A DNA stretch of 32,000 bases. Origin: Patescibacteria group bacterium (GTDB lineage Bacteria; Patescibacteriota; Patescibacteriia; UBA2591; UBA6264). Positions 2,576-28,971 of this stretch are shown in pieces. Positions within the stretch are counted from its first letter, which is position 1. Each line of letters begins with the position of its first letter. The DNA lies in contig JAQTOB010000003.1 of the NCBI GenBank assembly GCA_028713575.1, forward strand, positions 1 through 32,000, in the 5' to 3' direction. The notes beneath the pieces were generated by a model. That model searched no databases. It was given only the letters and a program-made list of their open reading frames with translations, and had not been told where the DNA came from. Both the position numbers and the translations under genes were made by a program.

Positions 2576-3739
2576 ATGCAAGATAAAAATTATTATTCAA
2601 TGGCGAAAAACATTGTTTTAAGCATTATTTATTTTTTCCGTTTTTTTCTTCCGGGACAAAAACGGATTTTCTCCTTTAAAAAATTCACTTTGGCTGGAAT
2701 TTTAATTCTAACAGCCATTTTTTCTTTTTCGCAAATAAATAAAAAACCAATAAATAAAGTAGAATTAAGTGAAGAAATTATTGTTGAAACCGGCTTGCCA
2801 ATCCAAGCTGAAGAAATAGAGCACGACTTTCAAATCGCGGCTTGGCGAGAACCAGATGATATTTTGGGGTTAAGCGAGGAGTCGGAAATCGCCTTAATTT
2901 TCGGGGGGAGCGTCTTGGTGGCGCCGGAAACGGAAATTAATGAAAAAGACATTTATCGCCAAACTCGCACCGAGATTGAAACATATATTGTTCAACCGGG
3001 AGACACGATCAGCACTATTGCCGAAACATTTGGTCTCAATTGGAACACTATTTTTTGGGCCAATAATTTAAACTACTGGTCAGTAATCAAACCCGGAAAT
3101 GAATTAAAAATTCTACCGGTAAACGGATTAACTCATACAGTAAAAAGGGGAGAAAATATTTCTTCTATTGCCAGCAAATATAAATCCTCGGTTGAAAAAA
3201 TCATAGAAATTAATAATTTAAGCGAAGAATTGGCGGTTCAGCCGGGTATGATTTTAATTGTTCCTGACGGCACTCCGCCGCCTGCCCCGACTAAACCAAA
3301 ATATGTATCTCCAAGTCCTCAATTAGTACAACAAAATTATTCTAATTATTGGGACTGGAGAAAAAATACTGATTGCCATTTATTTGTTTCCCGACAGTGC
3401 ACTGATTGGGCTGCCTTTAAGTGGGCCAGCGAACAAGGTCAATGCGTGCCATCTTGGAGCCATGCTCGATATTGGTTTAAAAACGCGCAAAAAGACGGCT
3501 ATGAAACCGGAAACCAGCCAAAACAAGGGGCAATTATGGCCCTAACCTGCACCAGCTGGATTTGCGGTTATTATGGACATGTGGCTTATGTGGAAGATTT
3601 TGACGAAAATACTGTCACTATTTCCGAAATGAACGGTTTAAAACGTTTAGAGCAATCAACTCGCTCTTTTAAAAATATCACTAATCAATGGCAGGGCGGT
3701 TGGAAAATTCTTGGTTATATTTATCCAAAAAACAAATAA
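2576..3739 (+). CDS. Secreted/membrane-anchored peptidoglycan hydrolase: N-terminal TM, 2x LysM, C-terminal CHAP amidase/peptidase
   Basis: Two LysM repeats (YIVQPGDTISTIAETFGLNWNTIFWANNL; HTVKRGENISSIASKYKSSVEKIIEINNL). CHAP-like Cys (SRQCTDWAAFKW) and His (YGHVAYVE). Hydrophobic N-terminus. Confidence 0.85.
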   Translation: MQDKNYYSMAKNIVLSIIYFFRFFLPGQKRIFSFKKFTLAGILILTAIFSFSQINKKPINKVELSEEIIVETGLPIQAEEIEHDFQIAAWREPDDILGLSEESEIALIFGGSVLVAPETEINEKDIYRQTRTEIETYIVQPGDTISTIAETFGLNWNTIFWANNLNYWSVIKPGNELKILPVNGLTHTVKRGENISSIASKYKSSVEKIIEINNLSEELAVQPGMILIVPDGTPPPAPTKPKYVSPSPQLVQQNYSNYWDWRKNTDCHLFVSRQCTDWAAFKWASEQGQCVPSWSHARYWFKNAQKDGYETGNQPKQGAIMALTCTSWICGYYGHVAYVEDFDENTVTISEMNGLKRLEQSTRSFKNITNQWQGGWKILGYIYPKNK

Positions 3740-5890: not shown

Positions 5891-7870
5891 TTATTTTTTC
5901 CTCTGTCTTGATATTTTAAATTTAAAACCGGGTTTACTCTTTTTATAAGAAATGATGGTTGTTTTTTCGCCACGATTATTTTTTTTAAAAAACACCTGTC
6001 GCCAATCTTTGCTCTCCACCAGAACAGATAAGTCTGCCGACTGGTGGAAGATGTCTTTTTCCAATAATCTTAAAATTTTAAAAACCAGGCTTTGATTTTT
6101 AACGATTATCTTTACTTTTCCCCGACGATGATGATAAAAACACTGTCCTGGTTGATGATAAATCTCCGTCCGGGAAAACTTCATCAAACTCATTTCATCC
6201 CAACCGTGTTCTCCTAAACAATACTCTATTTCTTTTGAGGGAATTTCGCAGAAATAAAAATTGTCATCTTTGTCCCAAGAAAAACCCAGGGGTCGTTCGC
6301 TTTGGTTTTGATTTTTTAATGTTTTTTTTATTTCTTCAAAAAGCTGTTTCGGTTGTTTTTTAATAAAATTATTTTTTTGCCAGTCAATAAAATGTTTCTG
6401 GGCAAAAAAAGAAAATTCTTCCGGCGCGTGTTCCCAATAATCTTTAAGTGAGGGCAATTGACGAACCTGACGCAGGTCGTCAACTACATGTAAAACATCA
6501 TGGACATCCATACCGCTTTTTAATTTATAAATCGCGTCGCGCCATTTAATGGCTTTTTCAAATTCTTGACTGACAACTGCTTTCTTCATCTCGTCTTCAA
6601 ATTCCAATATCATGGAATTAAATTGGCCGGCCAATACTCTTTTTTTATAAGGAACGGACTTCCATGTTTTCATAGCCCGACGATAAGCCCGCCTGATTTT
6701 TCCGCTCCGTTGCCAATCAAAAGCAATACCAATTATTTGTTGATAATAATTTTCCGCCTGTTCTCTTATTTTTAAAGAAACGTTCGGTATAGAAAAAACA
6801 ACCTGTTTCAGGGCGTGAGCTCCTTGTTCTATCATTTCTAATGACCACCACGGTTTGGCCGAGGCCCACCAATACTGATCAGATTGTATGGCCTTGTCCA
6901 TTTTGTCTCTTATTTTTTCATATCCCGATATTTGATGGTCAATTTTGTTAATTAAGCCAAAAACAAAATAAGTGAATTTCCATTGAAATTGGTGAATGGG
7001 ATTTTGGGGATGCGACCAAAGAGTAAATGAATGTTCCTTTTTTTTGTCCAGCCAGAAGTCCTGTTCTTCAGAAGACCAAGTGCTGTCCCTTGGCTCAATA
7101 ATTTCAGAAACGCCAAATTTTTCAATCAAGTCAGAAACAAAAACTTGCGGTATTTTTTTATTTTTATATATACTAAAAAGAAATTCTTCTAATCCCGGCC
7201 GATGATGACCAAATGTTTCCGCGTCCATTACAGTCAATAAATAACGGTCTTTCTTAATTTCTTCCTTTCCCGCTTCTTGTATAAAAGATTCAAAATGGCG
7301 AACAATGGCCGAAAGAATCAAAACGCTTATTCTTTTGTCTCTGAAAATTATTTTAAAATCATTTAAATCTTTGATTGAATATATTTTTTTAAAATCAGGC
7401 TTTGTTGGGGCGGCCAATTCTTCAGCGATTATCCAATCAAACCCCGCCTCTTTTGCCGTTTGCGCCACCTTTTTACTGTAAGCGAGCTCGGGAGAAAAAA
7501 ATCCTTGCGGTTGCCAGGCATCGCCAAAATATTTTTTATTGGTTCTGTTATTTAATTCTATTTGTCTTTTAATTTCCTCCTTTGGTAAAAGAGGAAGAAA
7601 GGGATGATATTTTACTCCGCCCGTAAATTGAACCTGTCCTCTTTTTGCCAGCATCTCTATTTGTTTGATAACATCTTGATATCCGTTTTTGAACAAGGTT
7701 TCGGTTAAACCAGCGTTTATGTTAATTGTTAGTTTTGCCTTCTTGTTTAAAAGCAATCCTTTTAAAATTTTTCTATAACTTTCCTCAACAATCCTCTCTA
7801 AAATATCCTTTTGTTGATTATATGGTTGATAAAAATGCAAAAAATTGGCCCAATGCATAAAATTATTCAT
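5891..7870 (-). CDS. Glycoside hydrolase family 57 protein (branching-enzyme-like) fused to a UVR motif and an unassigned ~200-aa C-terminal region
   Basis: WANFLHFYQP (GH57 region I-like), YHPFLPLLP, WIIAEELA, VMDAETFGHH (GH57 acid/base region). UVR-like LEFEDEMKKAVVSQEFEKAIKWRDAIYKLK at about 6511-6615. Paralog of 7867..9033. Confidence 0.75.
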   Translation of the reverse strand: MNNFMHWANFLHFYQPYNQQKDILERIVEESYRKILKGLLLNKKAKLTININAGLTETLFKNGYQDVIKQIEMLAKRGQVQFTGGVKYHPFLPLLPKEEIKRQIELNNRTNKKYFGDAWQPQGFFSPELAYSKKVAQTAKEAGFDWIIAEELAAPTKPDFKKIYSIKDLNDFKIIFRDKRISVLILSAIVRHFESFIQEAGKEEIKKDRYLLTVMDAETFGHHRPGLEEFLFSIYKNKKIPQVFVSDLIEKFGVSEIIEPRDSTWSSEEQDFWLDKKKEHSFTLWSHPQNPIHQFQWKFTYFVFGLINKIDHQISGYEKIRDKMDKAIQSDQYWWASAKPWWSLEMIEQGAHALKQVVFSIPNVSLKIREQAENYYQQIIGIAFDWQRSGKIRRAYRRAMKTWKSVPYKKRVLAGQFNSMILEFEDEMKKAVVSQEFEKAIKWRDAIYKLKSGMDVHDVLHVVDDLRQVRQLPSLKDYWEHAPEEFSFFAQKHFIDWQKNNFIKKQPKQLFEEIKKTLKNQNQSERPLGFSWDKDDNFYFCEIPSKEIEYCLGEHGWDEMSLMKFSRTEIYHQPGQCFYHHRRGKVKIIVKNQSLVFKILRLLEKDIFHQSADLSVLVESKDWRQVFFKKNNRGEKTTIISYKKSKPGFKFKISRQRKK

Positions 7871-9033
7871 TTTATTGTTTTTTTGATTTCTGTCGCCTTT
7901 AAAATCTCTTTTAATAAAAATTTTATTTTCTTCTTTTTATCTGATTTTAAATTTTTCTCCAAAAGTTTGAATATTTTTGAAAAATATTCCGCGCCAAGAA
8001 AAATCATACTTGGACCCCACCATGGTCGATTTGATGCCCACCAACAAGGGTCAGAAAACAGGGCTTTATCTAAAGTTTCTCTGGCCTCCACATAATTATT
8101 ATCTTTAACAGATTGATAAACCAATTTTAAAATCAATTTTGTAAGTTGTTTAAAATTTTTGTGAATTTGATTTTTAGGGTCTGACCATAAAGGATAAAAA
8201 TTGTTATTTTTAATATCCATTAATTCCGTTGCCCAACTGGATTTTAAAGGACTTACTTTCTCCGTCTGGCCCGTTTTCAATAATCCCAGATACTGGGAAT
8301 AATTAATCATAACAATTCGGGAATCAAGGGCTATTTCTTTCCAAATATCAATTAAATAATTTTGATGATGTCCAAGATTTTCTCCATCAAAAGCCGTTAT
8401 TAAAAACTTATTTTTTCTGCCGTTTCTTCCGGCTGCTGAAAAAAATTTGTCAACTGAATCAAGCCAATCGCCAAAAAACGTCGCACTCAGTCCGCGATTT
8501 CGGAAAACAATTTTAATTTCTTTGTTAAGAAATATTTTTAATTTATAAATTTTATCAAAACTTACTTTGCCAAAATTTCCTTGATAGGCTATCTCGTCTA
8601 AAGCAATCCATTGATATCCTTTTTGCCTGATAACTTTTGCCGCCCTTTTACTATAGGCCATTTCTGGAAGGAAAAATCCTTGTGGTCGCCAAACAGCGCC
8701 AAAATATTTTTTGTTTATTTTTTCGTTCAAATCAATTTGTCTAATTATTTCTTTCTTGGGTAAAAATGGCAAAATTGGATGATAAGCGGCAGACCCCGTT
8801 AATTCTATTTGTCCATTTTCTGCCAATTTTTTGATTCTGATTATAATGTCCTGATGGCCAGAAGCACTCAATTGTTCGGTTAAAGACGCGCAGATATTCA
8901 AACTTATTTTTATTTTTTGACAAGATTCTAAAATATTTAGAATTCTATTATAAGATTCAAAAACAACCTCATCAATGATTTTCTTTTTTTGTCCTGGCGG
9001 TTGATAAATGTGCAAAAGATTGGCCCAATACAT
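7867..9033 (-). CDS. Glycoside hydrolase family 57 protein (catalytic domain only)
   Basis: WANLLHIYQP, YHPILPFLP, WIALDEIA, TAFDGENLGHH. Aligns along its full length with the N-terminal 390 aa of 5891..7870. 4-bp overlap with that gene. Confidence 0.75.
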   Translation of the reverse strand: MYWANLLHIYQPPGQKKKIIDEVVFESYNRILNILESCQKIKISLNICASLTEQLSASGHQDIIIRIKKLAENGQIELTGSAAYHPILPFLPKKEIIRQIDLNEKINKKYFGAVWRPQGFFLPEMAYSKRAAKVIRQKGYQWIALDEIAYQGNFGKVSFDKIYKLKIFLNKEIKIVFRNRGLSATFFGDWLDSVDKFFSAAGRNGRKNKFLITAFDGENLGHHQNYLIDIWKEIALDSRIVMINYSQYLGLLKTGQTEKVSPLKSSWATELMDIKNNNFYPLWSDPKNQIHKNFKQLTKLILKLVYQSVKDNNYVEARETLDKALFSDPCWWASNRPWWGPSMIFLGAEYFSKIFKLLEKNLKSDKKKKIKFLLKEILKATEIKKTIK

Positions 9034-9082
9034 AAATGTTTCGTTAAATTAAAATTTTAAAATGAAAGGTAAAAAATTATTT

Positions 9083-10585
9083 TTACTTTTCTTTTATTGT
9101 TTTTGCTTTTTCGTTTTTAGTTCTCATCTTCTTAATCGCTTTTCTATATAAAACCACGTATTTTTTGGCCGGCAATGTCCAAGAATAAGACTCTTTCATA
9201 CTTCGACGAACCAAGTTCCGCCAAGCGGCCTCTCTTTTATGGTTTTCTAAAGCTCGAGCAATGGCAAATAACAAATCATAAGAATTATAAGAACGAAAAA
9301 CAAAACCATTCCCTCGCCCCGTGGCCGAATTATAATCGCTAACCGTGTCTAAAAGACCGCCCACGGCATGAACAATGGGAATGGAGCCATAACGCAAACT
9401 GATTAACTGAGAAATGCCGCACGGCTCAAAACGGGAAGGCATTAAATAAATATCTGAAGCCGCATATATTTTACGGGCAATGTCTTCTCTAAAAGGAGAA
9501 ATAAATAATAATTTTTTAGGGAACGCCTTTTGACTCTTCCTTAAAATTTCCCTGTATTTGCCGCCACCGCTACCAACCACAACAATCTGTAAATCTTTTT
9601 TTAAAAGATGGTCCAAGAGATTGATTATCAGTTCAAACCCTTTTTGCTCCGTTAGTCTATTTGCCAAACCAATTATAGGAATTTTGGCATTCACTTCCAA
9701 ATTATATTTTTTTTGAAAGATAAGTTTATTTTCTATTTTTTTTTCCAAAACATTTATATCATAATGGACATAAATATTCGGGTCAAATTGAGGATTAAAA
9801 ATGGCATAATCTATGCCGTTAATTATACCATAAATATCTTTTTCTCGTTTTTTAAAATGCTTCTCCATTTGGCAACCATATTCTTCGGTCATTATCTCCT
9901 GGGCATACCGCAGACTGACAGTATTGATAATATCCGCATTTAAAACCGCTCTTTTTACAAAATTAATCCATTCTGTTTTCTTGAGATTTTCCGGTGGCAA
10001 ATTTCTTCCGTTATCTTTTTTATTGATAGGAATTTTCCACCAATCCTTTGGTCCTTGAAAAAGTAAATTATGAATGGTAAATAAAGTGGCGACATTTTTG
10101 AATTTTTCTTCCTTTTTATATTTTATTTTTAAATAATTTGGGATTAAACCGGTATGCCAGTCATGGCAATGAATCACTTGCGGTTCAAATTTTAAATTTT
10201 TAATCAATTCTATGGCTGCTAAATTAAAAAGTAAAAATCTTAAACCATTATCTGGATAATTATACATTTCCGACCCTCTTTTGTGGCGAGACCCAAATAG
10301 CCTTTGTTGACAAATAAAAAATACCGGGTATTTGTCCGGACAAATGGCCTTTTTAAAACCAAATTTATATTCTTGACCGTCGAAATTCAATGATAAATGA
10401 ATGTTTAAATTTTCTACTGTCCATTTGTCCTCTTTTATAAAGCCGTAATAAGGAGTAATCGCCATTACTTGATGTCCCAACCGCTTTAAAGCTCGGGGCA
10501 AAGAACGGGTAACATCGGCTAGCCCGCCGCTTTTTGAATAAGGAGAAATTTCTGAACTAACATGGACAATTTTTAAAGCTCTCAT
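9083..10585 (-). CDS. glgA: Glycogen/starch synthase (GT5)
   Basis: N-terminal KIVHVSSEISPYSKSGGLADV (KxGGL motif), HCHDWHTGL, and C-terminal PSRFEPCGISQL typical of GlgA. Confidence 0.9.
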   Translation of the reverse strand: MRALKIVHVSSEISPYSKSGGLADVTRSLPRALKRLGHQVMAITPYYGFIKEDKWTVENLNIHLSLNFDGQEYKFGFKKAICPDKYPVFFICQQRLFGSRHKRGSEMYNYPDNGLRFLLFNLAAIELIKNLKFEPQVIHCHDWHTGLIPNYLKIKYKKEEKFKNVATLFTIHNLLFQGPKDWWKIPINKKDNGRNLPPENLKKTEWINFVKRAVLNADIINTVSLRYAQEIMTEEYGCQMEKHFKKREKDIYGIINGIDYAIFNPQFDPNIYVHYDINVLEKKIENKLIFQKKYNLEVNAKIPIIGLANRLTEQKGFELIINLLDHLLKKDLQIVVVGSGGGKYREILRKSQKAFPKKLLFISPFREDIARKIYAASDIYLMPSRFEPCGISQLISLRYGSIPIVHAVGGLLDTVSDYNSATGRGNGFVFRSYNSYDLLFAIARALENHKREAAWRNLVRRSMKESYSWTLPAKKYVVLYRKAIKKMRTKNEKAKTIKEK

Positions 10586-11061
10586 AAATTAAAATTTTTT
10601 GTTTGAGCACAAGTAATGGCAATTGCCAAAGCATCGGCAACATCGTCTGGCTGGGGTATTTTTTCAAGGCATAAAATTGATTTTACCATTTTTTGTATCT
10701 GTTCTTTTGAAGCTCGACCATAACCTGTTAAGGCCTGTTTTACTTGAAGCGGGGTATATTCTTTAATTGTTATATCGTTTTGCGCCGCCAAGAGCGCGGC
10801 AATTCCCCTGCTTTCGCTGACTTTCATGGCTGTTTTGGCGTTTTTGGCGAAAAAAATGGTTTCAATCGCTATGATGTTTGGTTTATATTTTTTAATCAAC
10901 AAATCTATTTCTTGATATATTTGTAAAATTCTTTGGCTAAAAATTTTCTGAGAAGAAGTTCTGACGCATCCATAATCGGAAACAAAAAATTTATTTTTCT
11001 TAAAAACAAGAATTGCATAGCCAACAATAGCAATGCCGGGGTCAATACCTAAAATAATCAT
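10582..11061 (-). CDS. ruvC: Crossover junction endodeoxyribonuclease RuvC
   Basis: MIILGIDPGIAIVGYAI, ..IAIETIFF..N..TA, C-terminal PQPDDVADALAIA. ATGA overlap with the glgA start. Confidence 0.9.
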   Translation of the reverse strand: MIILGIDPGIAIVGYAILVFKKNKFFVSDYGCVRTSSQKIFSQRILQIYQEIDLLIKKYKPNIIAIETIFFAKNAKTAMKVSESRGIAALLAAQNDITIKEYTPLQVKQALTGYGRASKEQIQKMVKSILCLEKIPQPDDVADALAIAITCAQTKNFNL

Positions 11062-11977: not shown

Positions 11978-13018
11978 ATGATGATTCTTGATAATTTATC
12001 AAAAATTAAAAAGTTAGACAAATCAAACATGGCCGGATTTATTGCTGAATTCCCTCAAAAATGCCAACAAGCTTATAAAGAAGCGCAAAAAATCAGCCTG
12101 TCAAAAGAATATAAAAACGTCAAAAACGTGATTATTTGCGCTCTGGGAGGTTCGGCAATTAGCGGAGAATTAAGTAAGGGCCTGTCTGATCAACTAAAAA
12201 AACCAATTATTATTAATCGTAGTGAAAATTTGCCCAATTCAACAGACAAAGATTCTTTGGTTGTTTTAATAAGTTATTCCGGGAACACTCAAGAGGTTCT
12301 CCTTTGTGGCCAAGAGGCTAAACAAAGAAAAAGTAAAATTTTTATTATTACTCAAGGCGGGAAATTAAAAATTTTTGGGAAACAAAATAATTTCCCCATG
12401 TTTAATTTTGCCTATCCCGCTCCACCTCGAGCTGGCTTGGCTTATCTCTTAATGCCCTTGTTGGTTATTTTTGAAAAAATTGGATTGATTAAAAAAAATT
12501 CTTTAAAAATAAATAAAAAATTGCAAAATTTTTGTCAAAATTTGAACCCTCAAACGTTAACGAAAAAAAATCTTGCCAAATATTTGGCCTACGCAATGTT
12601 TGATCGTTTGCCCATCATTATCGCTCCGCCTGAATTAGTCAGTGTGGCCTATCGATGGAAAACACAAATGGCTGAAAATGCAAAATCTTTCTTATTTTTT
12701 GAGGCCAAGCCAGAAATATTCCATAATTTCATTGAAAGCGTATTTCCAAAAAGATTAAACGATGAATTTATTTTTTTAATTTTCAATGACATCAAAAAAA
12801 ATTATTTAAATAAAAAATCTTCAAAAATACTTGAAAATTTTTTAAAAGAAAAATTTTGTTGGGAAAAAGTGCCGTTCTTTGGACAAGACGCCCTAACTCA
12901 AACATTTTCTTTGATTTTGCTGGGGGACTGGATTAGTTTTTATCTTGCCCTGCTTAATGAAGTTGACCCTTCGCCGGTTAGACAAATAAAAAAATTTAAA
13001 AAACATTTAAATGAATAA
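11978..13018 (+). CDS. Bifunctional phosphoglucose/phosphomannose isomerase (SIS-domain, archaeal-type PGI/PMI)
   Basis: SIS motif ICALGGSAISGE, LVVLISYSGNTQE, C-terminal LLNEVDPSPVRQIKKFK typical of the bifunctional PGI/PMI family. Confidence 0.8.
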   Translation: MMILDNLSKIKKLDKSNMAGFIAEFPQKCQQAYKEAQKISLSKEYKNVKNVIICALGGSAISGELSKGLSDQLKKPIIINRSENLPNSTDKDSLVVLISYSGNTQEVLLCGQEAKQRKSKIFIITQGGKLKIFGKQNNFPMFNFAYPAPPRAGLAYLLMPLLVIFEKIGLIKKNSLKINKKLQNFCQNLNPQTLTKKNLAKYLAYAMFDRLPIIIAPPELVSVAYRWKTQMAENAKSFLFFEAKPEIFHNFIESVFPKRLNDEFIFLIFNDIKKNYLNKKSSKILENFLKEKFCWEKVPFFGQDALTQTFSLILLGDWISFYLALLNEVDPSPVRQIKKFKKHLNE

Positions 13019-14747
13019 TTTTTTAACATATAATTTAAAAAATTGGGATTGGTTAAAATATTTTTTTATTTTTTCTTTTAGCTTTATTGTTTTTCTTTAT
13101 TTACTCGTTCCTCCGGGTATCTTATGTCCAGACGGCTTTTTCCATACTAAAATGGCTTTATTGTTGAAAGAGCAAGGAGTGATAAAAAATTTCCCCTGGA
13201 CTCAATTCACCACTTATAAAGACCTTTTTGTTGACCATCATTTTCTTTACCACTTATTTCTCGTTCCCTTCTTAAGTTTGCCCTCTCCTCAAAATATGGA
13301 TATTTTTTCCCTGGAAACAGATTTTTTAATTAAAGCTAAATTGGCTACCGCATTTTTAGCCAGCCTGACATTTTTAATCCTTTATTGGTTTTGCCGACGA
13401 ATGAAAATAAAAGGGTCTTTAATTTGGACGATGACAGGATTTTTAATCCCCGCTTTTCTTTTCCGCCTTTCTTTAATCAGAGCACCGGGAATTTCTATTA
13501 TAATATTATTGTTAAGTTTTTATTTCATTCTAAAAAATAAATATTCCCCGCTTTTTCTTTTATCTTTTATTTATGTTTGGACCTACGGCGCCTGGCCACT
13601 GCTGATAATAGTAATTTTTTTGTATTGCTTCGCCGGGGCGTGCCAAAAATTAAACAACCAAAGAAATGAAATATACCAGAAAATCAAAAATCAAAAATCA
13701 AAATGTAAAATTAAAATTCAAAATTCAAAAATTTTTAAAATTTATATTGTCATTTTGCATTTTATATTTTGCATTTTGCATTTTATACGCTCTATTTTTT
13801 CTAAAAACAACATAAAACTCATTATTGCCTGTATGGGGGGGATATTCGTTGGTCTTGTCGTCAATCCTTATTTCCCAAAAACCTTCCCTTTTTATTGGCT
13901 ACAAACATTTAAAATCGCTTTTTTAAATTATCAAAGTAAAATCGGCGTCGGCGCCGAATGGTATCCTCCTAATTTAAAAACTTTTTTTATTAATGTTCTC
14001 CCTGTTTTTATCCCCTGGATAATCTCCTGGGCTTGGTTTGCTTTTAAAATAAAAAAACATAAAAAATCTTCCTGGTTTTTCGGTTTTATTTCCTTGTTTT
14101 TCTTTTTTTACACCCTAAAATCTTTTCGCAATATTGAATATTTTATTCCCTTCTCCATTGTTTTTAATGGTCTTATTTTCTCTCAAATTATTAAAAAAAT
14201 AAATTGGCAAGATATTAAAAATAATTTTAAGGCCTGTTTTAATGGACCAAATAATATTTTTTATTTTATCGCCGGACTTTTTTTAATTGTCTGTGTTAGC
14301 ATTTCATTTGGTTTTTATTTAAATTCAAGCATTAAAAATCTTCATCAAGAATATCAAAGAAACGGCCGACCGTTAAATCATTTACAAATGGCCTCTACTT
14401 GGTTAAAAAATCATGCCAATCCCGAAGAAATAGTTTTTCAAAGCAATTGGGGAATTTTCCCACAATTGTTTTATTTTAATTCGCAAAACTATTACATTAA
14501 TGGTTTGGACCAAACATTTATGTATGAATATAGCAAAGAATTATATCAGGATTGGTTTGATTTAGTTGCTTACAAAACAGGTCCGGAAAAAGCGGCTAAA
14601 ATTTTGAAAGAAAATTTCAAGGCTAGCTATGTTTTGGCAGACAAAAATGATGAACGTTTTGTCAAGCTAATTAAAAAATCAATCGGATTAATAGAAGTAT
14701 ATCAAGATGAACAAGCGATAATTTACCGAATAAATTATGTCAATTAA
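13011..14747 (+). CDS. Polytopic membrane protein, GT-C-fold (PMT/ArnT-like) glycosyltransferase candidate
   Basis: More than 10 predicted TM segments with a soluble C-terminal ~150 aa. The operon context with GT2 supports the role. The family assignment is an inference. Confidence 0.5.
   Translation: MNNFLTYNLKNWDWLKYFFIFSFSFIVFLYLLVPPGILCPDGFFHTKMALLLKEQGVIKNFPWTQFTTYKDLFVDHHFLYHLFLVPFLSLPSPQNMDIFSLETDFLIKAKLATAFLASLTFLILYWFCRRMKIKGSLIWTMTGFLIPAFLFRLSLIRAPGISIIILLLSFYFILKNKYSPLFLLSFIYVWTYGAWPLLIIVIFLYCFAGACQKLNNQRNEIYQKIKNQKSKCKIKIQNSKIFKIYIVILHFIFCILHFIRSIFSKNNIKLIIACMGGIFVGLVVNPYFPKTFPFYWLQTFKIAFLNYQSKIGVGAEWYPPNLKTFFINVLPVFIPWIISWAWFAFKIKKHKKSSWFFGFISLFFFFYTLKSFRNIEYFIPFSIVFNGLIFSQIIKKINWQDIKNNFKACFNGPNNIFYFIAGLFLIVCVSISFGFYLNSSIKNLHQEYQRNGRPLNHLQMASTWLKNHANPEEIVFQSNWGIFPQLFYFNSQNYYINGLDQTFMYEYSKELYQDWFDLVAYKTGPEKAAKILKENFKASYVLADKNDERFVKLIKKSIGLIEVYQDEQAIIYRINYVN
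13681..13790. repeat. AT-rich imperfect palindromic repeat element embedded in-frame in the CDS
   Basis: Left arm is (AAAATCA)n-AAAATGTAAAATTAAAATTCAAAATTCAAAA. Right arm is ATTTTGCATTTTATATTTTGCATTTTGCATTTTA, whose reverse complement is AAAATGCAAAAT units. It encodes KIKNQKSKCKIKIQNSKIFKIYIVILHFIFCILHFI. Confidence 0.7.
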
Positions 14748-15495
14748 AGCTCCAAATTATAAAACAATTGCTGTTTTGCCGGCCTATAATGCGGAAAAAA
14801 CATTAGAAAAAACCTTGGCAGACATTGATCAAAATTGGATTGATAAAATCATTTTGGTTGATGACGCCAGCACGGATAAAACCGTGGAAATTGCGAAAAA
14901 TTGCGGGATAGAAACATTTAAACACGAAAAAAATCTCGGTTATGGCGGAAATCAAAAAACTTGTTATAAGAAGGCGCTGGAAAGAGGGGCGGACATTGTG
15001 ATTATGATTCATCCTGACCACCAATACGACCCCACCTACATCCCTCAAATTGTTCTTCCAATTATCCGCGGTCAGGCTGACGCGGTTTTTGGTTCTCGCA
15101 TGATGGTTAAAGGTTGGGCGCGGGAAGGGGGAATGCCCGGGTGGAAATACTGGGCCAATATATTTTTAACCAAAATAGAAAATTTAATTTTAAGACTTCA
15201 TTTGACTGAATACCATTCCGGCTTTCGCGCTTACCGGAAAGAAATTTTACAAACCATTCCTTTTAATCTAAATTCTAATGATTTTGTTTTTGATACGGAA
15301 ATTATTATCCAAATTAAAATCCATAAATTCCGAATTATGGAAATTCCCATTACCACCCGTTATTTCAAAGATGCCTCTTCTGTTGGTTTAAAAAAAAGCG
15401 TTGTCTATGGCTTGTCTATTTTGAATCGCCTGATTAAATATATTCTGAGTAAAATCAAAATAAGAAAAGAGCTTCGGTTCCGATTAAAAACGTAA
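14737..15495 (+). CDS. GT2 glycosyltransferase, polyprenol-phosphate sugar synthase-like (Dpm1/GtrB/ArnC-like)
   Basis: AVLPAYNAEKTLEKTL...LVDDASTDKT...GYGGNQK...IHPDHQYDP (GT-A DxD region). 11-bp overlap with the upstream gene. Confidence 0.85.
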   Translation: MSIKAPNYKTIAVLPAYNAEKTLEKTLADIDQNWIDKIILVDDASTDKTVEIAKNCGIETFKHEKNLGYGGNQKTCYKKALERGADIVIMIHPDHQYDPTYIPQIVLPIIRGQADAVFGSRMMVKGWAREGGMPGWKYWANIFLTKIENLILRLHLTEYHSGFRAYRKEILQTIPFNLNSNDFVFDTEIIIQIKIHKFRIMEIPITTRYFKDASSVGLKKSVVYGLSILNRLIKYILSKIKIRKELRFRLKT

Positions 15496-15644: not shown

Positions 15645-17261
15645 ATGACTATTAAAAATTTAATTAAAAATATTTCTTGGAAGGACTGGCTGTTTCTGAT
15701 TGGGATGGCTTTTTTAGTGATTTTAGCCACCACTGTTCCTTATTTTTATGGTTATTCCAAAGCAAATGAAAATACTTATTTTTTGGCCATTCCGTCTTTA
15801 AACGAATTTGATTATCCAAATTATTTTTCTTACATTGAGCAAGTCCGACAAGGACATTTTTTATTTGAAGATTATTATACGACTGAAGCGCAACCGCGCG
15901 TTATCCTGAATTTATTTTTTCTTGCCCTCGGCCTAATTGCCAAATTCTCTCACTTGTCCGCCATAGCTATCTTCCATCTTGTCCGCGTTTTCCTGATTCC
16001 TATTTTTATCTTTGTTTTTTATCTTTTCCTAAAATTTTTGTTCCAAGAAAAAATCAAACAAAAAATATGTTTAATTTTAATTTGTTTTTCCAGCGGCTGG
16101 GGATTTATTCTTTATTCCTTATCTTCTATTTATAAACAATCAATGGATTTGTGGGTTCCTGAAGCCGTTACTTTTCTCAGTTTTTATACTAACCCGCTTT
16201 TTATTTTTTCTTTGACTTTAATTGTTCTGATTTTCTTTTTAATGCTTTTGTCCGCTGTTAATAAGAATTATCGCTATGCCATTGCGGCCGGGCTGGTTGG
16301 TTTAATTCTTTTCCAAATTCATCCTTATCATTTGCCGACTGTTTTTTCTGTTTTAATCGTTTTTTGGCTAATAATTTGTCTGCGCGAAAAAAAAATAAAT
16401 TGGTTATTTTTTAAATACGGTTTAATTTTCTTTTTTCTTTCTCTCCCTCCTGTTTTGTATTATTATTGGCTTTCTTCTTCTCATTGGCTAACAGTCCATC
16501 GCATCAGTCAGGCAACCCCTGCTGGCCTCACTCCTCCTTTCTGGCCATTTCTTATTAGTTATGGTTTACTTTGGCCATTGGCCTTTGTTGGTATTTATCC
16601 TGTTGTTAAAAATAAAAAAAAATATATTTCTGTTTTTCTCCCCGTTTGGCTAATTACTCATATTATTCTGGTTTATTTGCCTTTTCCCCTGCAAAGAAAA
16701 TTAACAGAAGGTCTTCATTTAGTCCTTTGTTTAATGGCCACAGAGGGAATTTTCTTTATTTGGCAAAAAATAAAAGAAAAAAAAATCTTTAAATTTTTTA
16801 AAAATAAATTCTTATTTTATGTTTTATTTTTGTTTTTCTTTTCTCTTTCAAATGTCTTTATTCTAAGCAAAGACATATTCCTTTTTTCTGACCCTGGCTT
16901 TTCCTTGCCCAAAAAAGCAATGGAGCCAATGCTTTGGTTAAAAAATAATTCATCAGAAGATGCAAAAGTTTTAAGCGTCAAAAATTTATATCTTCACAAT
17001 TTAATTCCTGCTTTTAGTGTCAGAAAAGTTTTTGCCGGCCATAGTTTTGAAACCGCTTATTATCAAAACAAAATTAAAGAAATTGATTGGTTTTTTAATA
17101 CCAATATTAACGATGACGAAAAAGAAAAATTTTTAAAAAAAAATGGCTTGAATTATATTTTATTTTATAAAAACGGCAATTATTCTTTTAGGCCGAATGA
17201 AAAAAAATATTTAAAATTGGTCTTTGAAAACGAATTAATCAATATTTATCAAAATCAATAA
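15645..17261 (+). CDS. Second polytopic membrane protein, GT-C-like glycosyltransferase candidate
   Basis: More than 10 TM segments, a first-loop acidic/aromatic patch (NEFDYPNYFSYIEQVRQGHFLFEDYY) and a soluble C-terminal domain. Family assignment inferred. Confidence 0.5.
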   Translation: MTIKNLIKNISWKDWLFLIGMAFLVILATTVPYFYGYSKANENTYFLAIPSLNEFDYPNYFSYIEQVRQGHFLFEDYYTTEAQPRVILNLFFLALGLIAKFSHLSAIAIFHLVRVFLIPIFIFVFYLFLKFLFQEKIKQKICLILICFSSGWGFILYSLSSIYKQSMDLWVPEAVTFLSFYTNPLFIFSLTLIVLIFFLMLLSAVNKNYRYAIAAGLVGLILFQIHPYHLPTVFSVLIVFWLIICLREKKINWLFFKYGLIFFFLSLPPVLYYYWLSSSHWLTVHRISQATPAGLTPPFWPFLISYGLLWPLAFVGIYPVVKNKKKYISVFLPVWLITHIILVYLPFPLQRKLTEGLHLVLCLMATEGIFFIWQKIKEKKIFKFFKNKFLFYVLFLFFFSLSNVFILSKDIFLFSDPGFSLPKKAMEPMLWLKNNSSEDAKVLSVKNLYLHNLIPAFSVRKVFAGHSFETAYYQNKIKEIDWFFNTNINDDEKEKFLKKNGLNYILFYKNGNYSFRPNEKKYLKLVFENELINIYQNQ

Positions 17262-17319: not shown

Positions 17320-17748
17320 CTAAGAAAAATATTTTATCAACATCATTGAGCTGGATGGGCCGGGTTTACTGGGTTTACTGGTTGCTTTTGATAAATTTTC
17401 AATCACAAAACGGGAAATTGCGTATGCAAGGACAATAATAATCAATCCAATAAAAGCGTTTTGAAAAAGCGCTTTGGCTTTTTTAACTTGGTCTTCCTTG
17501 CCGCCGGCAGTCATCCACATAATGCCCCCAATAATAACCAAAATTAACAAAAACACTCCCGTTAAGGTAAAAATCGTTCCCATAATCTTCCCTGTAATTG
17601 CGCTAATATCCCGTTGTTCTCCTAATTTAGCGCTATCTGCCACTTTATCAAGTTCCTCTAATTGAGCAGAAACATTTAAAGGGATTAGGAAAAAAATCAT
17701 TAAAACCAAAACAAACAATTTGCCTTTTTTTGGATTAAAAATTCTCAT
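17320..17748 (-). CDS. TrbC/VirB2-like 'pilin' small membrane protein, paralog P1
   Basis: Signal peptide ending LNVSAQ. Core VIIGGIMWMTAGGKEDQVKKAKALFQNAFIGLIIIVLAYAISRFV (TM-basic loop-TM). Ser/Pro-rich tail TSKPSKPGPSSS. Confidence 0.7.
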   Translation of the reverse strand: MRIFNPKKGKLFVLVLMIFFLIPLNVSAQLEELDKVADSAKLGEQRDISAITGKIMGTIFTLTGVFLLILVIIGGIMWMTAGGKEDQVKKAKALFQNAFIGLIIIVLAYAISRFVIENLSKATSKPSKPGPSSSMMLIKYFS

Positions 17749-17756
17749 AAATTAAA

Positions 17757-18140
17757 CTATGCTTCAGTTACCTCAACTATATTGCTGATAACAAAGGTAG
17801 CAATGGCATAGGCCAAAACAACAATTATTAGCCCTACCAAAGCAGAACCAATTAATTTTTTAGCGCTTTTAATTTTGTCCTCATTTCCAGCTGAGGCCAT
17901 CCACTGAAATCCGCCGATAATAACCAAAACAACGGCCACTAAGCCAAGAAGGCTTAAAACAATTTTAATAATATTCCCCACCACTTCGGTTATGCTGGCT
18001 TCACCATAACCGGCTACTTCGCGAAAATTCTGTACATAATTATTGCCCAGGTCCAAATTACTGGTCTGCGCTAATAAGGCTGAAGGAGCTAAAGCCGAAA
18101 CAATGGCGACTAAAGCAATTAATGATAAAAATTTTTTCAT
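17757..18140 (-). CDS. TrbC/VirB2-like 'pilin' small membrane protein, paralog P2
   Basis: Signal peptide MKKFLSLIALVAIVSALAPSALLAQ. Core VIIGGFQWMASAGNEDKIKSAKKLIGSALVGLIIVVLAYAIATFV. Confidence 0.7.
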   Translation of the reverse strand: MKKFLSLIALVAIVSALAPSALLAQTSNLDLGNNYVQNFREVAGYGEASITEVVGNIIKIVLSLLGLVAVVLVIIGGFQWMASAGNEDKIKSAKKLIGSALVGLIIVVLAYAIATFVISNIVEVTEA

Positions 18141-18220
18141 TTTAAAGCTCTTTTGCTTCTACCTCCTGGAAGCAATTTATTAATTCGACCTTAGATTAAT
18201 TATATTACATATATATTTTA

Positions 18221-18249
18221 TATATAAACAAAATCATTAAATTTGTCAA
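18221..18249 (-). promoter_or_regulatory. Sigma70-like promoter for the P2-P1 unit
   Basis: The minus strand reads TTGACA (18249-18244), 17 nt, then TATATA (18226-18221), with TG 2-3 nt upstream of the -10. Confidence 0.45.
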
Positions 18250-18311
18250 TCCTTTTATATAATAATCTAAAAAAAATAAAGAATCAATGTTAAAAAGTGG
18301 ATATCTTTTTT

Positions 18312-18656
18312 TTATTTAAGAAAAGCTTCTATAATAAAACGGGTGATGGCATAACTAAAAAACACCAAACCCATGCCCAATATGGCCCAAACCAAAGTGT
18401 CTTTCCCTTTTTTAATTTTTTCCGCTGAACCGCCGGAAGTCATCCATGTTATCCCGCCGACAATAAACATCACCAAAGCAATCACGCCGACAAATCTTAA
18501 AACATATTGGATAATACTGGCCGCCAAAGCGGAAATGTCTTTGTTTCCCAAGGGGTCTTCAATTGAAGGAACCTCGTCGGCTAAGGCAACTCCAAATAAA
18601 AACAATTGAATTAAAATTAATCCTAATAATATTTTTTTGTTTTTTTGTTGTTTCAT
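18312..18656 (-). CDS. TrbC/VirB2-like 'pilin' small membrane protein, paralog P3
   Basis: Signal peptide ending GVALADE. Core FIVGGITWMTSGGSAEKIKKGKDTLVWAILGMGLVFFSYAITRFI. Confidence 0.7.
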   Translation of the reverse strand: MKQQKNKKILLGLILIQLFLFGVALADEVPSIEDPLGNKDISALAASIIQYVLRFVGVIALVMFIVGGITWMTSGGSAEKIKKGKDTLVWAILGMGLVFFSYAITRFIIEAFLK

Positions 18657-18674
18657 AAAAATAAATTTATTTTA

Positions 18675-19451
18675 TTAGGGGGAACAGGGTTTGCTGTCTA
18701 GACTTTCAAATATTTTTTTATAGGTATCTGGTCCAACCAAGCCGTCCACTTCTAAATTATTGGCGGATTGAAATCTTTTAGTGCACTCTTTTGTGTCTGA
18801 ACCAAACTTACCGTCCGCCACGCCACAATTACATCCCAATTGATTCAGCTCATCCTGATAAATTTTTACCGCCTCGCCCCGGCAACCTTGTCCTGCTCCG
18901 GTCCAAATACAACCATAACACCAGGACTTATTCTTTGTAGGGGGGACCAAACAGGCCGGCCATTCTGTTTCCTTTTGTGTCGTTTGGTTTGATAAAAGTC
19001 TTTCTGTCCCTAAGGCTTGCATTATCACTTTTACAATAGTAAAAGAAATTAAAATAATCACTAATCCGATAATTGCGCCCCTGACAATGTCTTTTCCTTT
19101 TTTAACTTTGTCTTGCGAACCGCCGGAAGTCATCCAAACAATACCGCCAATAATTAAAAATAATATGGCAAAAACACCGGAAAACTTTAAAATTTTGTCC
19201 GCCAAATTAATGAATATTGTAACCATATCATTTAAGGTGCAATCTCCACAACAGGCACACTCGGGGCGAGAAATAAATAAACCGACATAACAATTATCGT
19301 ATCTTTTTCCCTGGCAAGTACAATTATAATACGTATTGCCTTCTTTGTCTGTTTGGGGGCTACCGCAATCTGAAACAGCATAAACCGAAGATGTCAAGCC
19401 AAACATAAAAATAAGTATTAAAAATGCTAAAATTTTCTTTTTAAAAAACAT
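18675..19451 (-). CDS. Pilin-like core (paralog P4) fused to Cys-rich ectodomains and a C-terminal PG_binding_1-type peptidoglycan-binding domain
   Basis: Signal peptide ending SSVYAV. N-terminal Cys-rich stretch CGSPQ..CTCQGKRYDNC..PECACCGDC. Core LIIGGIVWMTSGGSQDKVKKGKDIVRGAIIGLVIILISFTIV. C-terminal LNQLGCNCGVADGKFGSDTKECTKRFQSANNLEVDGLVGPDTYKKI. Confidence 0.7.
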   Translation of the reverse strand: MFFKKKILAFLILIFMFGLTSSVYAVSDCGSPQTDKEGNTYYNCTCQGKRYDNCYVGLFISRPECACCGDCTLNDMVTIFINLADKILKFSGVFAILFLIIGGIVWMTSGGSQDKVKKGKDIVRGAIIGLVIILISFTIVKVIMQALGTERLLSNQTTQKETEWPACLVPPTKNKSWCYGCIWTGAGQGCRGEAVKIYQDELNQLGCNCGVADGKFGSDTKECTKRFQSANNLEVDGLVGPDTYKKIFESLDSKPCSP

Positions 19452-19633: not shown

Positions 19634-21010
19634 TTAATAAGTTAGATTAATTTTTTGAACACAATAATTAATCGCTTTATCAATTGTTTTTTCTCCGCTG
19701 AACACTTCGGCTACCATTTGCCTAAAAGATTCTTCAACTAAAGAATAATTTTTCCCCCTATACCAAGTCTGAGCCGTAAGCACTCCTTTAACAAAAGGCG
19801 CTAAGTCAAAATCTTCTAATTGTTTTTCAATCAGGGCTCGGTGGGCGGTTGGTTTTTTTGTCCTCTCAATGAAGGTTTGGGCATTTTGTGCTTGGGTGGC
19901 ATAAAGAAGAAAAACCCAAGCCTCTTGAGGATGTTGGGTTTTTTTGGAAATCGTTTCCAACCAGTAACGCGCATAATTGATTTCTTTGAGCGAAGCGCTA
20001 ATTTGCGGAACCGGCGCAATATCAAAATTTAATTTTGGCGCCTGTTGTTTAATAAGGGACAAATAGTCAGAATAACCAAAAATGAAAGCCACTTTTCCCT
20101 GAATAAAAGATTCTAAAGAATTGGGCATTTGATCGTGCCAGGTATAAATTTCCTGATAAGGGTCGGCAAAGCTGGTATAAAATTTTAAAGCTTCTTTGCC
20201 GGGAAAATAATTCGGGTCATCAATTAATGGTTGATTAAAAATCGCTCCCCTTGTATAATCGGCCATGGCTGTTCCATTCTGCATCATTAATAAAGAAAGA
20301 ATGTCTGTTAAATTTTCCACGTTTTTGGAAGAGCCCATAGCCGCGCCGGAACGAAGGAAATCCCCTTGATTGTCTTGAATTGTTATGGTGTGAACATCGT
20401 TGACAAAATCTTGCCAATTTTTCGGCGCCTCAATAATGCCGGCGCTATTTAAAATGTCTTGGTTATAATAAAGACTTAGAATGTCTAAAGACAGGGGTAG
20501 ACCATAAATTTTATCATCAATGACCAAGTCCTTGGAAATTGTTTCTACAAAAGTTTCTCTCAGGTCTCTTAAGCTGGGCGCTTTCTTTTTTTCTTCTATA
20601 ATTTTTTGTTCCTTCTTTATTGTTCCTGTTGTTATTTGTCGGCCAATCGTTAGTTCGTCTAATAAACTTAAGGGTAAAATTTTAGTTTGATATTTTCCCA
20701 ACCAGGTATTGGGGATGGCAAAAATGTCCGGCCCTTGGTCTTCCGCCCAGGCTTCCAAAAGGGCTTGCTCATATTCCTCTGGTCTTATTTGTTGATAAGT
20801 AATGGAAATGTGAGGATATAGCGCCCTAAAACTCTGTAAAATGGCGCTAAAAGCGTCTTGACCGTCTTGCGGCCGCCAATAAACCAAATTGATTGGTTTG
20901 ATTTTCTCCGCCATCTCTTTTGACGTACATTTGCATCCCAATCCGGCAGTAATTAAAACAACTGAAATTAAAAACCCAATTAAAATTTTTGTTTTTAGCT
21001 GAAAAATCAT
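19634..21010 (-). CDS. ABC-transporter extracellular solute-binding protein (sugar-type, family 1), probable lipoprotein
   Basis: N-terminal TM/signal with Cys (ITAGLGCKC). Typical SBP_bac_1-like length and motifs (LVYWRP.., GPDIF.., KVAFIFGYS). No permease or ATPase gene is adjacent. Confidence 0.75.
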   Translation of the reverse strand: MIFQLKTKILIGFLISVVLITAGLGCKCTSKEMAEKIKPINLVYWRPQDGQDAFSAILQSFRALYPHISITYQQIRPEEYEQALLEAWAEDQGPDIFAIPNTWLGKYQTKILPLSLLDELTIGRQITTGTIKKEQKIIEEKKKAPSLRDLRETFVETISKDLVIDDKIYGLPLSLDILSLYYNQDILNSAGIIEAPKNWQDFVNDVHTITIQDNQGDFLRSGAAMGSSKNVENLTDILSLLMMQNGTAMADYTRGAIFNQPLIDDPNYFPGKEALKFYTSFADPYQEIYTWHDQMPNSLESFIQGKVAFIFGYSDYLSLIKQQAPKLNFDIAPVPQISASLKEINYARYWLETISKKTQHPQEAWVFLLYATQAQNAQTFIERTKKPTAHRALIEKQLEDFDLAPFVKGVLTAQTWYRGKNYSLVEESFRQMVAEVFSGEKTIDKAINYCVQKINLTY

Positions 21011-28122: not shown

Positions 28123-28971
28123 TTATTTCTCCACCACCAGCATTATTTTATCTCCTTTTAAAACTTCTTGGGCTTTTTGGTCTTTGTCTAATTCGCAATT
28201 TTTCTCCGATTCAAGCGGCCAGTCGTGAATAGCGTTCAAAAGAATGTCTTCTTTATAAATGAAATCTTTTCCTTTTTTAGTGCCGGGGTCATTGGTAATA
28301 AATTCGTCGTCTTTATATCCTTTAACCACCAACATATGATAAGCTGGGCCTGGTGTTTTATAATAAGGATTCTTTAACAGCCGGCCAGCAGTGGGCAAAA
28401 TTACCAAACTTCCTTTATTCAATTCCTTTCTAACATCATTTGTCTCTTCAACTTGAGTAAAATATATTTTATCCATTTTAAAATATTCTTGCGCCAATTC
28501 TTTGACCCTTTTAATATTCAAATCATAATGTCCGCCCCAATTCTCTATCTGCCATTTAACTAAACTCTGGATTTCTTTTTCCGCTTGCTCCAGCGTCAAA
28601 AGGCGATTACTTCGCCAATATTCAGCCATAATTAAAGTCGCTTCCTCGCAGGCTTCATTGTGTAAATCGTCCCAAACGGCAAACGGGGCCTGAACAGTAA
28701 AAGGAACTTCTAAATCAACTTCTTCTTTTATTTCTTCTTTTATTTCTCCCGCTTGTTCCTCTTTGGTTATTTCCGGCTCAATGACGTTAAATTCATTAAC
28801 AAGCGGCTCTGTTCGCGGGACCGGCTCTAATCCTTCTTCTGATAAAACATTTGATGACGTCTTGGGCATAAAAATCCAAAAGTCAAAAACAAAAACCGTG
28901 GCCAAAACAACAAAACCAATAATTATTTTTTGTAAAACTTTTTTTCTTTTTAATCTTAAGTCCCTAATCAT
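28123..28971 (-). CDS. Membrane-anchored C39-like (Peptidase_C39_2/BtrH-like) cysteine peptidase
   Basis: N-terminal TM. FTVQAPFAVWDDLHNEACEEATLIMAEYW (Cys motif), YHMLVVKGY (His), ITNDPG. Confidence 0.7.
   Translation of the reverse strand: MIRDLRLKRKKVLQKIIIGFVVLATVFVFDFWIFMPKTSSNVLSEEGLEPVPRTEPLVNEFNVIEPEITKEEQAGEIKEEIKEEVDLEVPFTVQAPFAVWDDLHNEACEEATLIMAEYWRSNRLLTLEQAEKEIQSLVKWQIENWGGHYDLNIKRVKELAQEYFKMDKIYFTQVEETNDVRKELNKGSLVILPTAGRLLKNPYYKTPGPAYHMLVVKGYKDDEFITNDPGTKKGKDFIYKEDILLNAIHDWPLESEKNCELDKDQKAQEVLKGDKIMLVVEK

Follow-up and report, generated by a model that had tools for sequence, protein, structure and literature searches.

A 32,000-nt stretch of a Patescibacteria group bacterium genome (assembly GCA_028713575.1, contig JAQTOB010000003.1, positions 1 to 32,000; the whole stretch is referred to below as the window) carried a module composed of a gene for an oligosaccharide-type solute-binding protein (SBP) followed by four genes, g1 to g4, for four distinct VirB2/TrbC-like hairpin proteins. 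P4, the product of g1, was the specialized first hairpin subunit of this chromosomal module, which was vertically conserved in a Patescibacteria lineage, while g2 to g4 were the three plain hairpin genes lying downstream of g1 on the same strand. P4 displayed the structure signal peptide–N-terminal Cys-rich ectodomain–transmembrane (TM) hairpin–Cys-linker–peptidoglycan-binding (PGB) domain; this architecture, together with the predicted topology that places both extensions outside the cell, is held with high confidence. As to its role, the reading favored here, tentatively, is that g1 provides a minor subunit tethering the hairpin assembly to the peptidoglycan of the cell itself (see below).

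Architecture and predicted topology of P4

The open reading frame (ORF) of P4 was intact and had an ATG start. Two Pfam domains exceeded their cut-offs, namely T4SS_pilin (PF18895) at residues 83 to 143 (E = 1.5e-8, 35.0 bits versus a cut-off of 26.6) and PG_binding_1 (PF01471) at residues 191 to 247 (E = 4.4e-14, 52.8 bits versus a cut-off of 23, covering the full profile 1–57); the TrbC profile gave 15.6 bits, under its cut-off, and no catalytic lysin domain was detected in P4 with Pfam. The initial annotation, made from the sequence alone, had described a TM-loop-TM core common to P4 and its three neighbors as well as a PG_binding_1-type region at about 18690 to 18870, and both descriptions held: PF18895 was above threshold in all four proteins, and the PG_binding_1 domain, with its boundaries set at residues 193 to 250, mapped to 18702–18875 (Table 1). 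Two copies of D-G-(hydrophobic)2-G-x-x-T, the PG_binding_1 repeat motif described for phiKZ gp144, were found in this domain, i.e., DGKFGSDT (residue 213) and DGLVGPDT (residue 236), and both repeats were intact in all 11 fused orthologues.

P4 contained 16 cysteines, eight before TM1 and eight after TM2, with none in the signal peptide, the TM helices, or the loop; the ten cysteines previously reported before TM1 were therefore a miscount. All the peptide strings were located in P4 by direct reading: CGSPQTDKEGNTYYNCTCQGKRYDNCYVGLFISRPECACCGDC; the C-terminal Cys motifs WPAC, WCYGC, GQGC, and GCNC, as annotated; and GVADGKFGSDTKECTKRFQSANNLEVDGLVGPDTYKKI. The signal peptide was the least conserved region of P4 (mean pairwise identity 0.28). 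Within the fused clade, mean identities were 0.61 for the core of the N-ectodomain, 0.60 for the Cys-linker, 0.58 for the PGB domain, and 0.52 for the hairpin. The family alignment revealed invariant residues C44, C46, C54, C65, C67, C68, C71, G69, and D70 in the N-ectodomain and C181 and C190 in the Cys-linker; the N-ectodomain gave no match in Pfam or PDB searches.

Each ectodomain had an even number of cysteines (6–14 and 6–10), and the hairpin had none, in 13 of the 13 family members, which is the pattern expected of fully disulfide-paired extracytoplasmic domains. The inter-helix loop of P4 harbored five K/R versus two D/E residues (net charge +3). Because of the signal peptide, the basic +3 loop, and the even, ectodomain-restricted cysteines, both extensions of P4 are predicted to lie outside the cell rather than in the cytoplasm, as the initial annotation had proposed from pilin topology. 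We strongly infer from these sequence features that P4 is exported by Sec, loses its signal peptide, and keeps its two TM helices in the cytoplasmic membrane in an N-out, C-out arrangement, with the short basic loop inside and the N-terminal Cys domain and the Cys-linker plus PGB domain outside, and, with the same strength, that the ectodomains would be disulfide-bonded.

AlphaFold2 (AF2) modeling on the family alignment gave P4 a mean predicted local distance difference test (pLDDT) score of 71, and the model displayed, in order, a signal-peptide helix (residues 2–18), a small beta domain (residues 27–55; pLDDT about 80), two long helices (residues 73–107 and 113–147), and the PGB bundle with helices 193–204, 218–230, and 241–249 (pLDDT 80–90). 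In Foldseek comparisons, the PGB bundle superposed on 4c2g, 6tci, and 5tv7 (CtpB, SleB-N, and a C. difficile peptidoglycan-binding protein) with root-mean-square deviations of 0.8–1.3 Å over 57–60 residues and a probability of 1.0; phiKZ gp144 and the peptidoglycan-binding domain of type II secretion EpsAB were also on the list, and PDB profile searching likewise matched the PGB domain to phiKZ gp144 (7e-10). The P4 hairpin gave weak structural matches to the conjugative pilins 8dfu and 8exh (Aeropyrum conjugation pilus and Agrobacterium T-pilus): the P4 model had a TM-target of 0.70, a probability of 0.98, and an E-value of 0.56 against 8dfu, and an E-value of 5.1 against 8exh.

Conservation of the fusion and of the module

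The same five-gene locus was assembled independently four times (a 517-kb JGI contig, NCBI GCA_028711035.1, and two Logan runs), and P4 was 99–100% identical over the four assemblies, a 243-aa version being an alternative start call only. The homologue search recovered 11 clusters, 45–100% identical, that carried both Pfam domains, and the fusion was common to about 20 protein clusters at 90% identity, which were diverged and kept an invariant inter-domain linker; since the exhaustive full-length profile search was dominated by multi-PG_binding_1 repeat proteins, only single-stretch full-length matches were interpreted. No strain-level diversification of g1 relative to g2–g4 was seen in a comparison restricted to near-identical strains. 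In locus L024, g1 was split into an N-Cys ORF (9998–10396) and a separate hairpin ORF (10474–10689), an arrangement that a frameshift, pseudogenization, or a sequencing error may explain.

An artefact or a mis-assignment is regarded as highly improbable, whether as a pilin ORF wrongly joined to a wall-binding ORF or as a prophage lysis cassette in which holin-like two-TM proteins accompany an endolysin wall-binding domain. PG_binding_1 is common in endolysins, all PHROGs matches to the P4 C-terminus were endolysins, and small two-TM proteins are superficially holin-like. The frame-fusion or assembly artefact was nevertheless rejected on the identical uninterrupted ORF in four assemblies and on the diverged clusters with their inter-domain linker, so that P4 stands as the product of a real gene, as first annotated, and not as a joining of two ORFs. 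The lysis cassette was rejected as well: PHROGs matched the PGB module only and returned no holin or other phage match for the hairpins, the catalytic lysin domain was lacking, and the locus lay in conserved housekeeping synteny.

A survey of the fusion beside pilin paralogs in related genomes, suggested in the initial annotation, was made by a species scan with one genome per species, in which 48 loci were recovered, and PGB-bearing g1 was present in 10–12 of them. PG_binding_1 occurred in roughly one-third of the g1 orthologue clusters. Because many g1 clusters were devoid of it, the conserved core of g1 was taken to be the N-Cys domain plus the hairpin, with the PGB domain as an accessory C-terminal module. 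Several long orthologues illustrated this modularity: P0136 (935 aa) and P0142 (653 aa) had the Cys-linker plus PGB unit tandemly repeated several times, and P0137 (532 aa) was a g1 orthologue with other Cys-rich repeats. Judged from these sequences, the g1 C-terminus is a hotspot of domain accretion.

The locus constituted a tandem array of four divergent PF18895/PF04956 genes, with relatives in genomes titled Patescibacteria, Parcubacteria, Uhrbacteria, or Komeilibacteria. All of g2, g3, and g4 were above the PF18895 threshold, g2 also exceeded the TrbC/VirB2 PF04956 threshold, and NF045849 (the NCBIfam pilin-like conjugal transfer protein) gave sub-threshold matches for all four genes. The mutual core identity of g1–g4 was 29–48%. 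The four genes were positional orthologues: 50 of 56 best matches fell in the same position, and identity was 0.50–0.67 within positions (0.67 for the g2 group) versus 0.32–0.51 between positions. A defined four-subunit assembly, not a variable array, is therefore indicated by these position-specific orthologues.

The gene order SBP, g1, g2, g3, g4 was kept across homologous loci, while the outer flanks changed. An orthologous SBP gene, in many cases no more than 10 nt away, directly preceded the hairpin array in 29 of the 48 species-level loci, and one was present at that place in all metagenome loci; several of the loci without SBP ended at contig edges. The SBP-linked loci included genomes titled Uhrbacteria, Komeilibacteria, and Parcubacteria. 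The linkage was recorded in the window for the SBP gene with the whole array (19634–21010 with 17320–19451) and in loci L001–L029, L036, L039, L040, L042, L043, L052, and L053. Some loci (L007, L009, L010, L013, L014, L016, and others) were titled 'uncultured Gammaproteobacteria bacterium' and yet had the Patescibacteria-type backbone PBP1a–SBP–array–YebC–RuvC; these titles look like placeholder mislabels unfit for taxonomy. The PDB matches of the SBP were arabino-oligosaccharide, maltodextrin, and chitin-oligosaccharide binding proteins. Neither in the window nor in the orthologous loci annotated with Pfam did an ABC permease or ATPase (BPD_transp_1, ABC_tran) lie beside the SBP. The window carried no VirB4, VirD4, VirB6, or VirB3/PrgI, and searching up to 10 kb away in the metagenome loci gave no VirB4, VirB6, or VirB3/PrgI either. 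A Walker-A screen followed by Pfam detected a VirB4-like ATPase (P-loop_TraG/AAA_10/DUF87) within 10 kb of the array in only one of the 48 species loci (L046:18422–20845), and no SBP preceded that array; the arrays may fall into two classes, one linked to a type IV secretion system (T4SS) and the other to the SBP.

Table 1. Positions of the SBP-hairpin module and of the parts of P4 in the window (aa numbers are those of P4)
Feature	Position	Strand	Basis
Family-1 oligosaccharide-type SBP, conserved first gene of the module	19634..21010	-	SBP_bac_1 (E = 9.7e-24); PDB sequence matches
P4/g1 (258 aa), Cys-rich VirB2-like hairpin protein with C-terminal PG_binding_1	18675..19451	-	ORF; PF18895 and PF01471 above gathering cut-offs; 11 orthologue clusters; 4 assemblies
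P4 signal peptide (aa 1–25), KKK n-region, hydrophobic core, VYA/VS cleavage-type site	19377..19451	-	Sequence and hydropathy; AF2 helix 2–18
P4 N-terminal ectodomain (aa 26–75), 8 Cys, C-x-C-C-G-D-C right before TM1	19227..19376	-	Alignment; AF2
P4 hairpin (aa 76–148), TM1–cytoplasmic loop (WMTSGGSQDKVKKGK)–TM2, T4SS_pilin core	19008..19226	-	PF18895 (35 bits); AF2 helices; loop charge
P4 variable spacer (aa 149–162) and conserved Cys-linker (aa 163–192; WPxCPxPPT...WCYGCxWTG...GC)	18876..19007	-	Alignment consensus
P4 PG_binding_1 domain (aa 193–250), three-helix bundle, two DG-hh-G-xx-T repeats, internal Cys	18702..18875	-	PF01471; Foldseek; PDB profile matches
g2, plain 114-aa hairpin paralogue (TrbC/VirB2 and T4SS_pilin)	18312..18656	-	PF04956 (36.4 bits; cut-off 27.9); PF18895 (36.4 bits)
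g3, plain 127-aa hairpin paralogue	17757..18140	-	PF18895 (36.6 bits); NF045849 (38 bits); positional orthology
g4, plain 142-aa hairpin paralogue, nearest to g3	17320..17748	-	PF18895 (32.2 bits); positional orthology

The module was located within a housekeeping chromosomal backbone (PBP1a ... YebC–RuvC) conserved across many species and not in a mobile element. The window had about 34% GC and contained housekeeping and wall genes (PBP1a, YceG/MltG, LysM-CHAP, RuvC, YebC, and glycogen enzymes), and a promoter/terminator scan gave counts not above those of shuffled controls. A LysM-LysM-CHAP wall hydrolase gene (2576–3739, plus strand) and a gene for a Peptidase_C39_2 protein (28123–28971, minus strand) recurred across many orthologous loci; together with PBP1a and YceG, they mark a wall-centered chromosomal region. 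Two polytopic membrane proteins of 578 and 538 aa (13011–14747 and 15645–17261, both plus strand) flanked a GT2 gene (14737–15495), had no Pfam or NCBIfam match, and kept their place next to the module in over 20 species loci; given the pairing with GT2, they may be GT-C-type glycosyltransferases. Two tandem GH57 genes, one with a UVR motif, lay beside a starch/glycogen-synthase-like GT5 gene (5891–10585, minus strand), and these genes are a glycogen-type storage cluster in a reduced genome.

Hairpin variants were also found elsewhere in the phylum. A hairpin-only profile search returned at least 2,690 clusters, with only short plain pilins among the matches listed, and the hairpin occurred in arrays of up to 14 genes. 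Giant proteins of 670–2,380 aa that opened with a signal peptide plus a T4SS_pilin hairpin were encoded at L034:3957–12431, L037:7784–16627, L038:9842–16072, L041:15–7163, L050:9749–12688, and L054:7878–14165, and, in the giants that were scanned (the 903-aa protein of L034, the 674-aa protein of L037, and the 979-aa protein of L050), Big_5 or TIG Ig-like domains followed the hairpin. The hairpin appears to be used to anchor or display adhesin-like ectodomains, and the PGB fusion is one of the many forms in which this phylum joins a hairpin to an ectodomain. P0214 (552 aa; L059:1777–3435) consisted of six T4SS_pilin hairpins in head-to-tail order; the linkers between them were short, and internal signal peptides were lacking. 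Its gene lay amid four single-hairpin genes. This protein suggests that hairpins can work side by side in one 12-TM polypeptide.

Tether to the own wall, host-wall adhesin, or complex without a pilus

For a tether to the cell's own wall, it is proposed that the PG_binding_1 domain of P4 would bind the cell's own peptidoglycan non-covalently and that this binding would tie a hetero-assembly with g2–g4 to the wall. This hetero-assembly could form the foot of a VirB2-type filament or else act as a membrane platform; g2–g4 would be the bulk subunits and g1 the minor, wall-engaging or terminating subunit. This reading is preferred, at somewhat less than even confidence, because the linker between TM2 and the PGB domain is short (about 45 residues in P4), the ectodomains are under strong constraint, the setting is housekeeping, and the cell makes its own sacculus. 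That the organism makes peptidoglycan follows from the PBP1a, YceG/MltG, and LysM-CHAP genes in the window, and constraint rather than an arms race is indicated since the ectodomains were at least as conserved as the hairpin and P4 was almost invariant over the four independent samples.

Five groups of observations weigh against this reading: (i) about 45 additional g1 clusters at 90% identity (174–240 aa), recovered with a g1-specific profile of N-Cys domain plus hairpin, had no PG_binding_1, some g1 orthologues had a different small Cys-rich domain at the C-terminus, and the tandem linker plus PGB units in some g1 would reach 500–770 aa from the membrane, such variability being unfavorable because an indispensable self-anchor is expected to be universal and has no need for such reach; (ii) other hairpin fusions carried adhesin-type Big_5/TIG Ig-like ectodomains of up to about 2,380 aa, which favors a display role; (iii) no T4SS ATPase or VirB6 was detected in the window, nor up to 10 kb from the array in 47 of the 48 species loci; (iv) the fold search with the hairpin was non-discriminating, the matches of the g2 model (AF2 pLDDT 81) in PDB all having E > 1 and being generic helical hairpins, with 8dfu at rank 15; and (v) the linker of the P4 model at about residues 150–190 was of low confidence (pLDDT < 50). 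As the g2-model matches were non-significant and generic, the label 'pilin' derives from sequence profiles and not from the fold.

The accretion at the g1 C-terminus bears directly on a second reading, in which g2–g4 would build a VirB2-type filament that takes up g1 as a minor subunit, at the tip or laterally, and g1 would bind exposed host peptidoglycan during epibiotic attachment. The initial annotation had named both a base or anchor subunit and a host-wall adhesin as options. In F-pilus structures, VirB2/TraA-type pilins expose their two termini on the outside of the filament, so the PGB and Cys-rich domains would be displayed on such a filament. The turnover and repeat expansion observed (no PGB, one to several PGB, or other Cys-rich repeats) are typical of avidity-driven surface binders, the Big_5/TIG-bearing relatives are consistent with display, and g1 heads the hairpin array, as expected of a subunit that starts the assembly and comes to lie at the tip; moreover, Patescibacteria are mostly epibionts, and proteins with peptidoglycan-binding domains (PGBD) have been proposed as host-attachment factors (PMC10936435). 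Nevertheless, this reading is considered doubtful: the ectodomains of the fused clade were conserved like the hairpin, with no strain-level variation seen among near-identical strains, the short linker fits the own wall, the PGB domain would need to pass the own peptidoglycan without sticking, peptidoglycan is unexposed on Gram-negative and most archaeal hosts, and no T4SS genes were linked to the module.

The lack of T4SS genes likewise enters a third reading, namely that there is no pilus and that the four hairpins form a T4SS-independent membrane hetero-oligomer (ring, pore, or platform) with the SBP lipoprotein, fixed to peptidoglycan by g1; such a complex might capture, sense, or import wall-derived glycans or other oligosaccharides. 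In line with it, the SBP gene directly preceded the array in 29 of 48 species loci, from genomes labelled Uhrbacteria, Komeilibacteria, and Parcubacteria, no ABC permease or ATPase accompanied the SBP, VirB4-like genes were missing from the neighborhood, the subunit set was fixed and orthologous, and P0214 was a natural six-hairpin polyprotein. This third reading is judged improbable, in that g2 was above the Pfam threshold for genuine TrbC/VirB2 and several conjugation pilin-like families matched, the family sits in a T4SS locus in Candidatus Southlakia epibionticum (PMC10633639), the rest of the 517-kb contig may hold a T4SS, and SBP-coupled hairpin transporters are without precedent. A related proposal, also unlikely, is that the SBP-linked four-hairpin module is a T4SS-independent envelope machine, conserved over a large Patescibacteria lineage, in which a g1-anchored filament or pore and the orphan SBP lipoprotein would capture or import glycans, possibly derived from the host wall; if true, parts of conjugative pilins would here make up an attachment or uptake apparatus of a new kind.

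The locus matters in that few essential envelope features specific to Patescibacteria are known, VirB2-like pilin arrays being among them, and a subunit predicted to contact peptidoglycan would constrain where the assembly sits. That the four orthologous subunits form a fixed set points to a defined hetero-assembly rather than to antigenic variation, and the tight, widespread link to an SBP in place of T4SS ATPases hints at glycan capture or T4SS independence. The link between the SBP and the four hairpins, a by-product of the analysis, is the more consequential observation and appears undescribed. The soluble ectodomains and the SBP are open to biochemistry without culturing the organism.

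Comparison with described systems

VirB2-like arrays of Patescibacteria, with 2–11 genes, have been published before: 441 arrays were reported in 383 assemblies, and a pilin gene was near virB4 in 1,135 of the 1,948 assemblies having both (Quinonero-Coronel et al. 2025, PMC12102498). The array SEML1_0014–0019 of Candidatus Southlakia epibionticum, which belongs to the same Pfam family, was essential and located beside VirB4 and VirB6 (Wang et al. 2023, PMC10633639). The role of VirB2-like pilin arrays has been termed 'completely unknown' (PMC11665869), the Patescibacteria systems were reviewed in 2025 as unique among monoderms for possibly making conjugative pili, a point that is debated (PMC12857230), and T4SS pilins were among the most highly expressed genes in Paceibacteria parasitizing methanogens (PMC10936435). 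The proposal of PGBD proteins as host-attachment factors came from the latter work (Kuroda et al. 2024, PMC10936435); membership of P4 in the same family as its highly expressed PGBD proteins was considered and rejected, the traceable one (PMX_810_sub_00350) being about 690 aa long and giving no pilin match. Full-text searches of papers and supplements recovered no description of a pilin–PG_binding fusion or of an SBP–pilin-array linkage, and both appear undescribed; the impression in the initial annotation that a VirB2-type pilin fused to a peptidoglycan-binding domain was a new architecture is in agreement with these searches.

The P4 locus and the S. epibionticum array shared the Pfam family, tandem divergent paralogues, signal peptides plus two-TM hairpins, and a patescibacterial chromosome, but the P4 array was linked to an SBP and not to VirB4/VirB6/PrgI, and its four genes were position-specific orthologues. 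Its first subunit additionally differed from those of the published arrays by disulfide-rich ectodomains and PG_binding_1, neither of which is mentioned in PMC10633639 and PMC12102498. P4 and the VirB2/TrbC/TraA pilins (PF04956; 8exh and 8dfu) had in common a signal peptide, two hydrophobic helices, and a short basic loop, with g2 passing the TrbC threshold; whereas canonical pilins are of 70–120 aa without folded ectodomains, are cyclized in the cases of VirB2 and TrbC, and are encoded in diderm T4SS operons, P4 had extensions of about 50 and about 110 aa and a monoderm-type host.

The closest functional analogies for P4 would be the basal pilins of sortase pili and the coupling of type II secretion to murein through the PG_binding_1 domain of GspA/ExeA: (i) in SpaB-type basal pilins, the analogy being functional only, a minor subunit ends the filament and fixes it to the wall, but this is done by covalent sortase linkage to lipid II, with Ig-like folds and LPXTG, while P4 had no homology to them and no LPXTG, and its attachment would be non-covalent; and (ii) GspA/ExeA (EpsAB; 4g54, rank 22 of the structural matches) likewise exposes a PF01471 domain on the outer face of the cytoplasmic membrane and uses it to couple the type II secretion machine to murein, the analogy again being functional only since GspA is an accessory factor with a cytoplasmic AAA+ ATPase and a single TM helix, while P4 had no ATPase, two TM helices, and no sequence relationship beyond the PGB domain. 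The closest relatives of P4 residues 193–250 in both sequence and structure were the endolysin/autolysin modules (phiKZ gp144, SleB, and CtpB), which target a catalytic domain to the wall; P4 lacked such a catalytic domain and displayed instead a PGB domain with extra cysteines stapling it and a conserved Cys-linker ahead of it.

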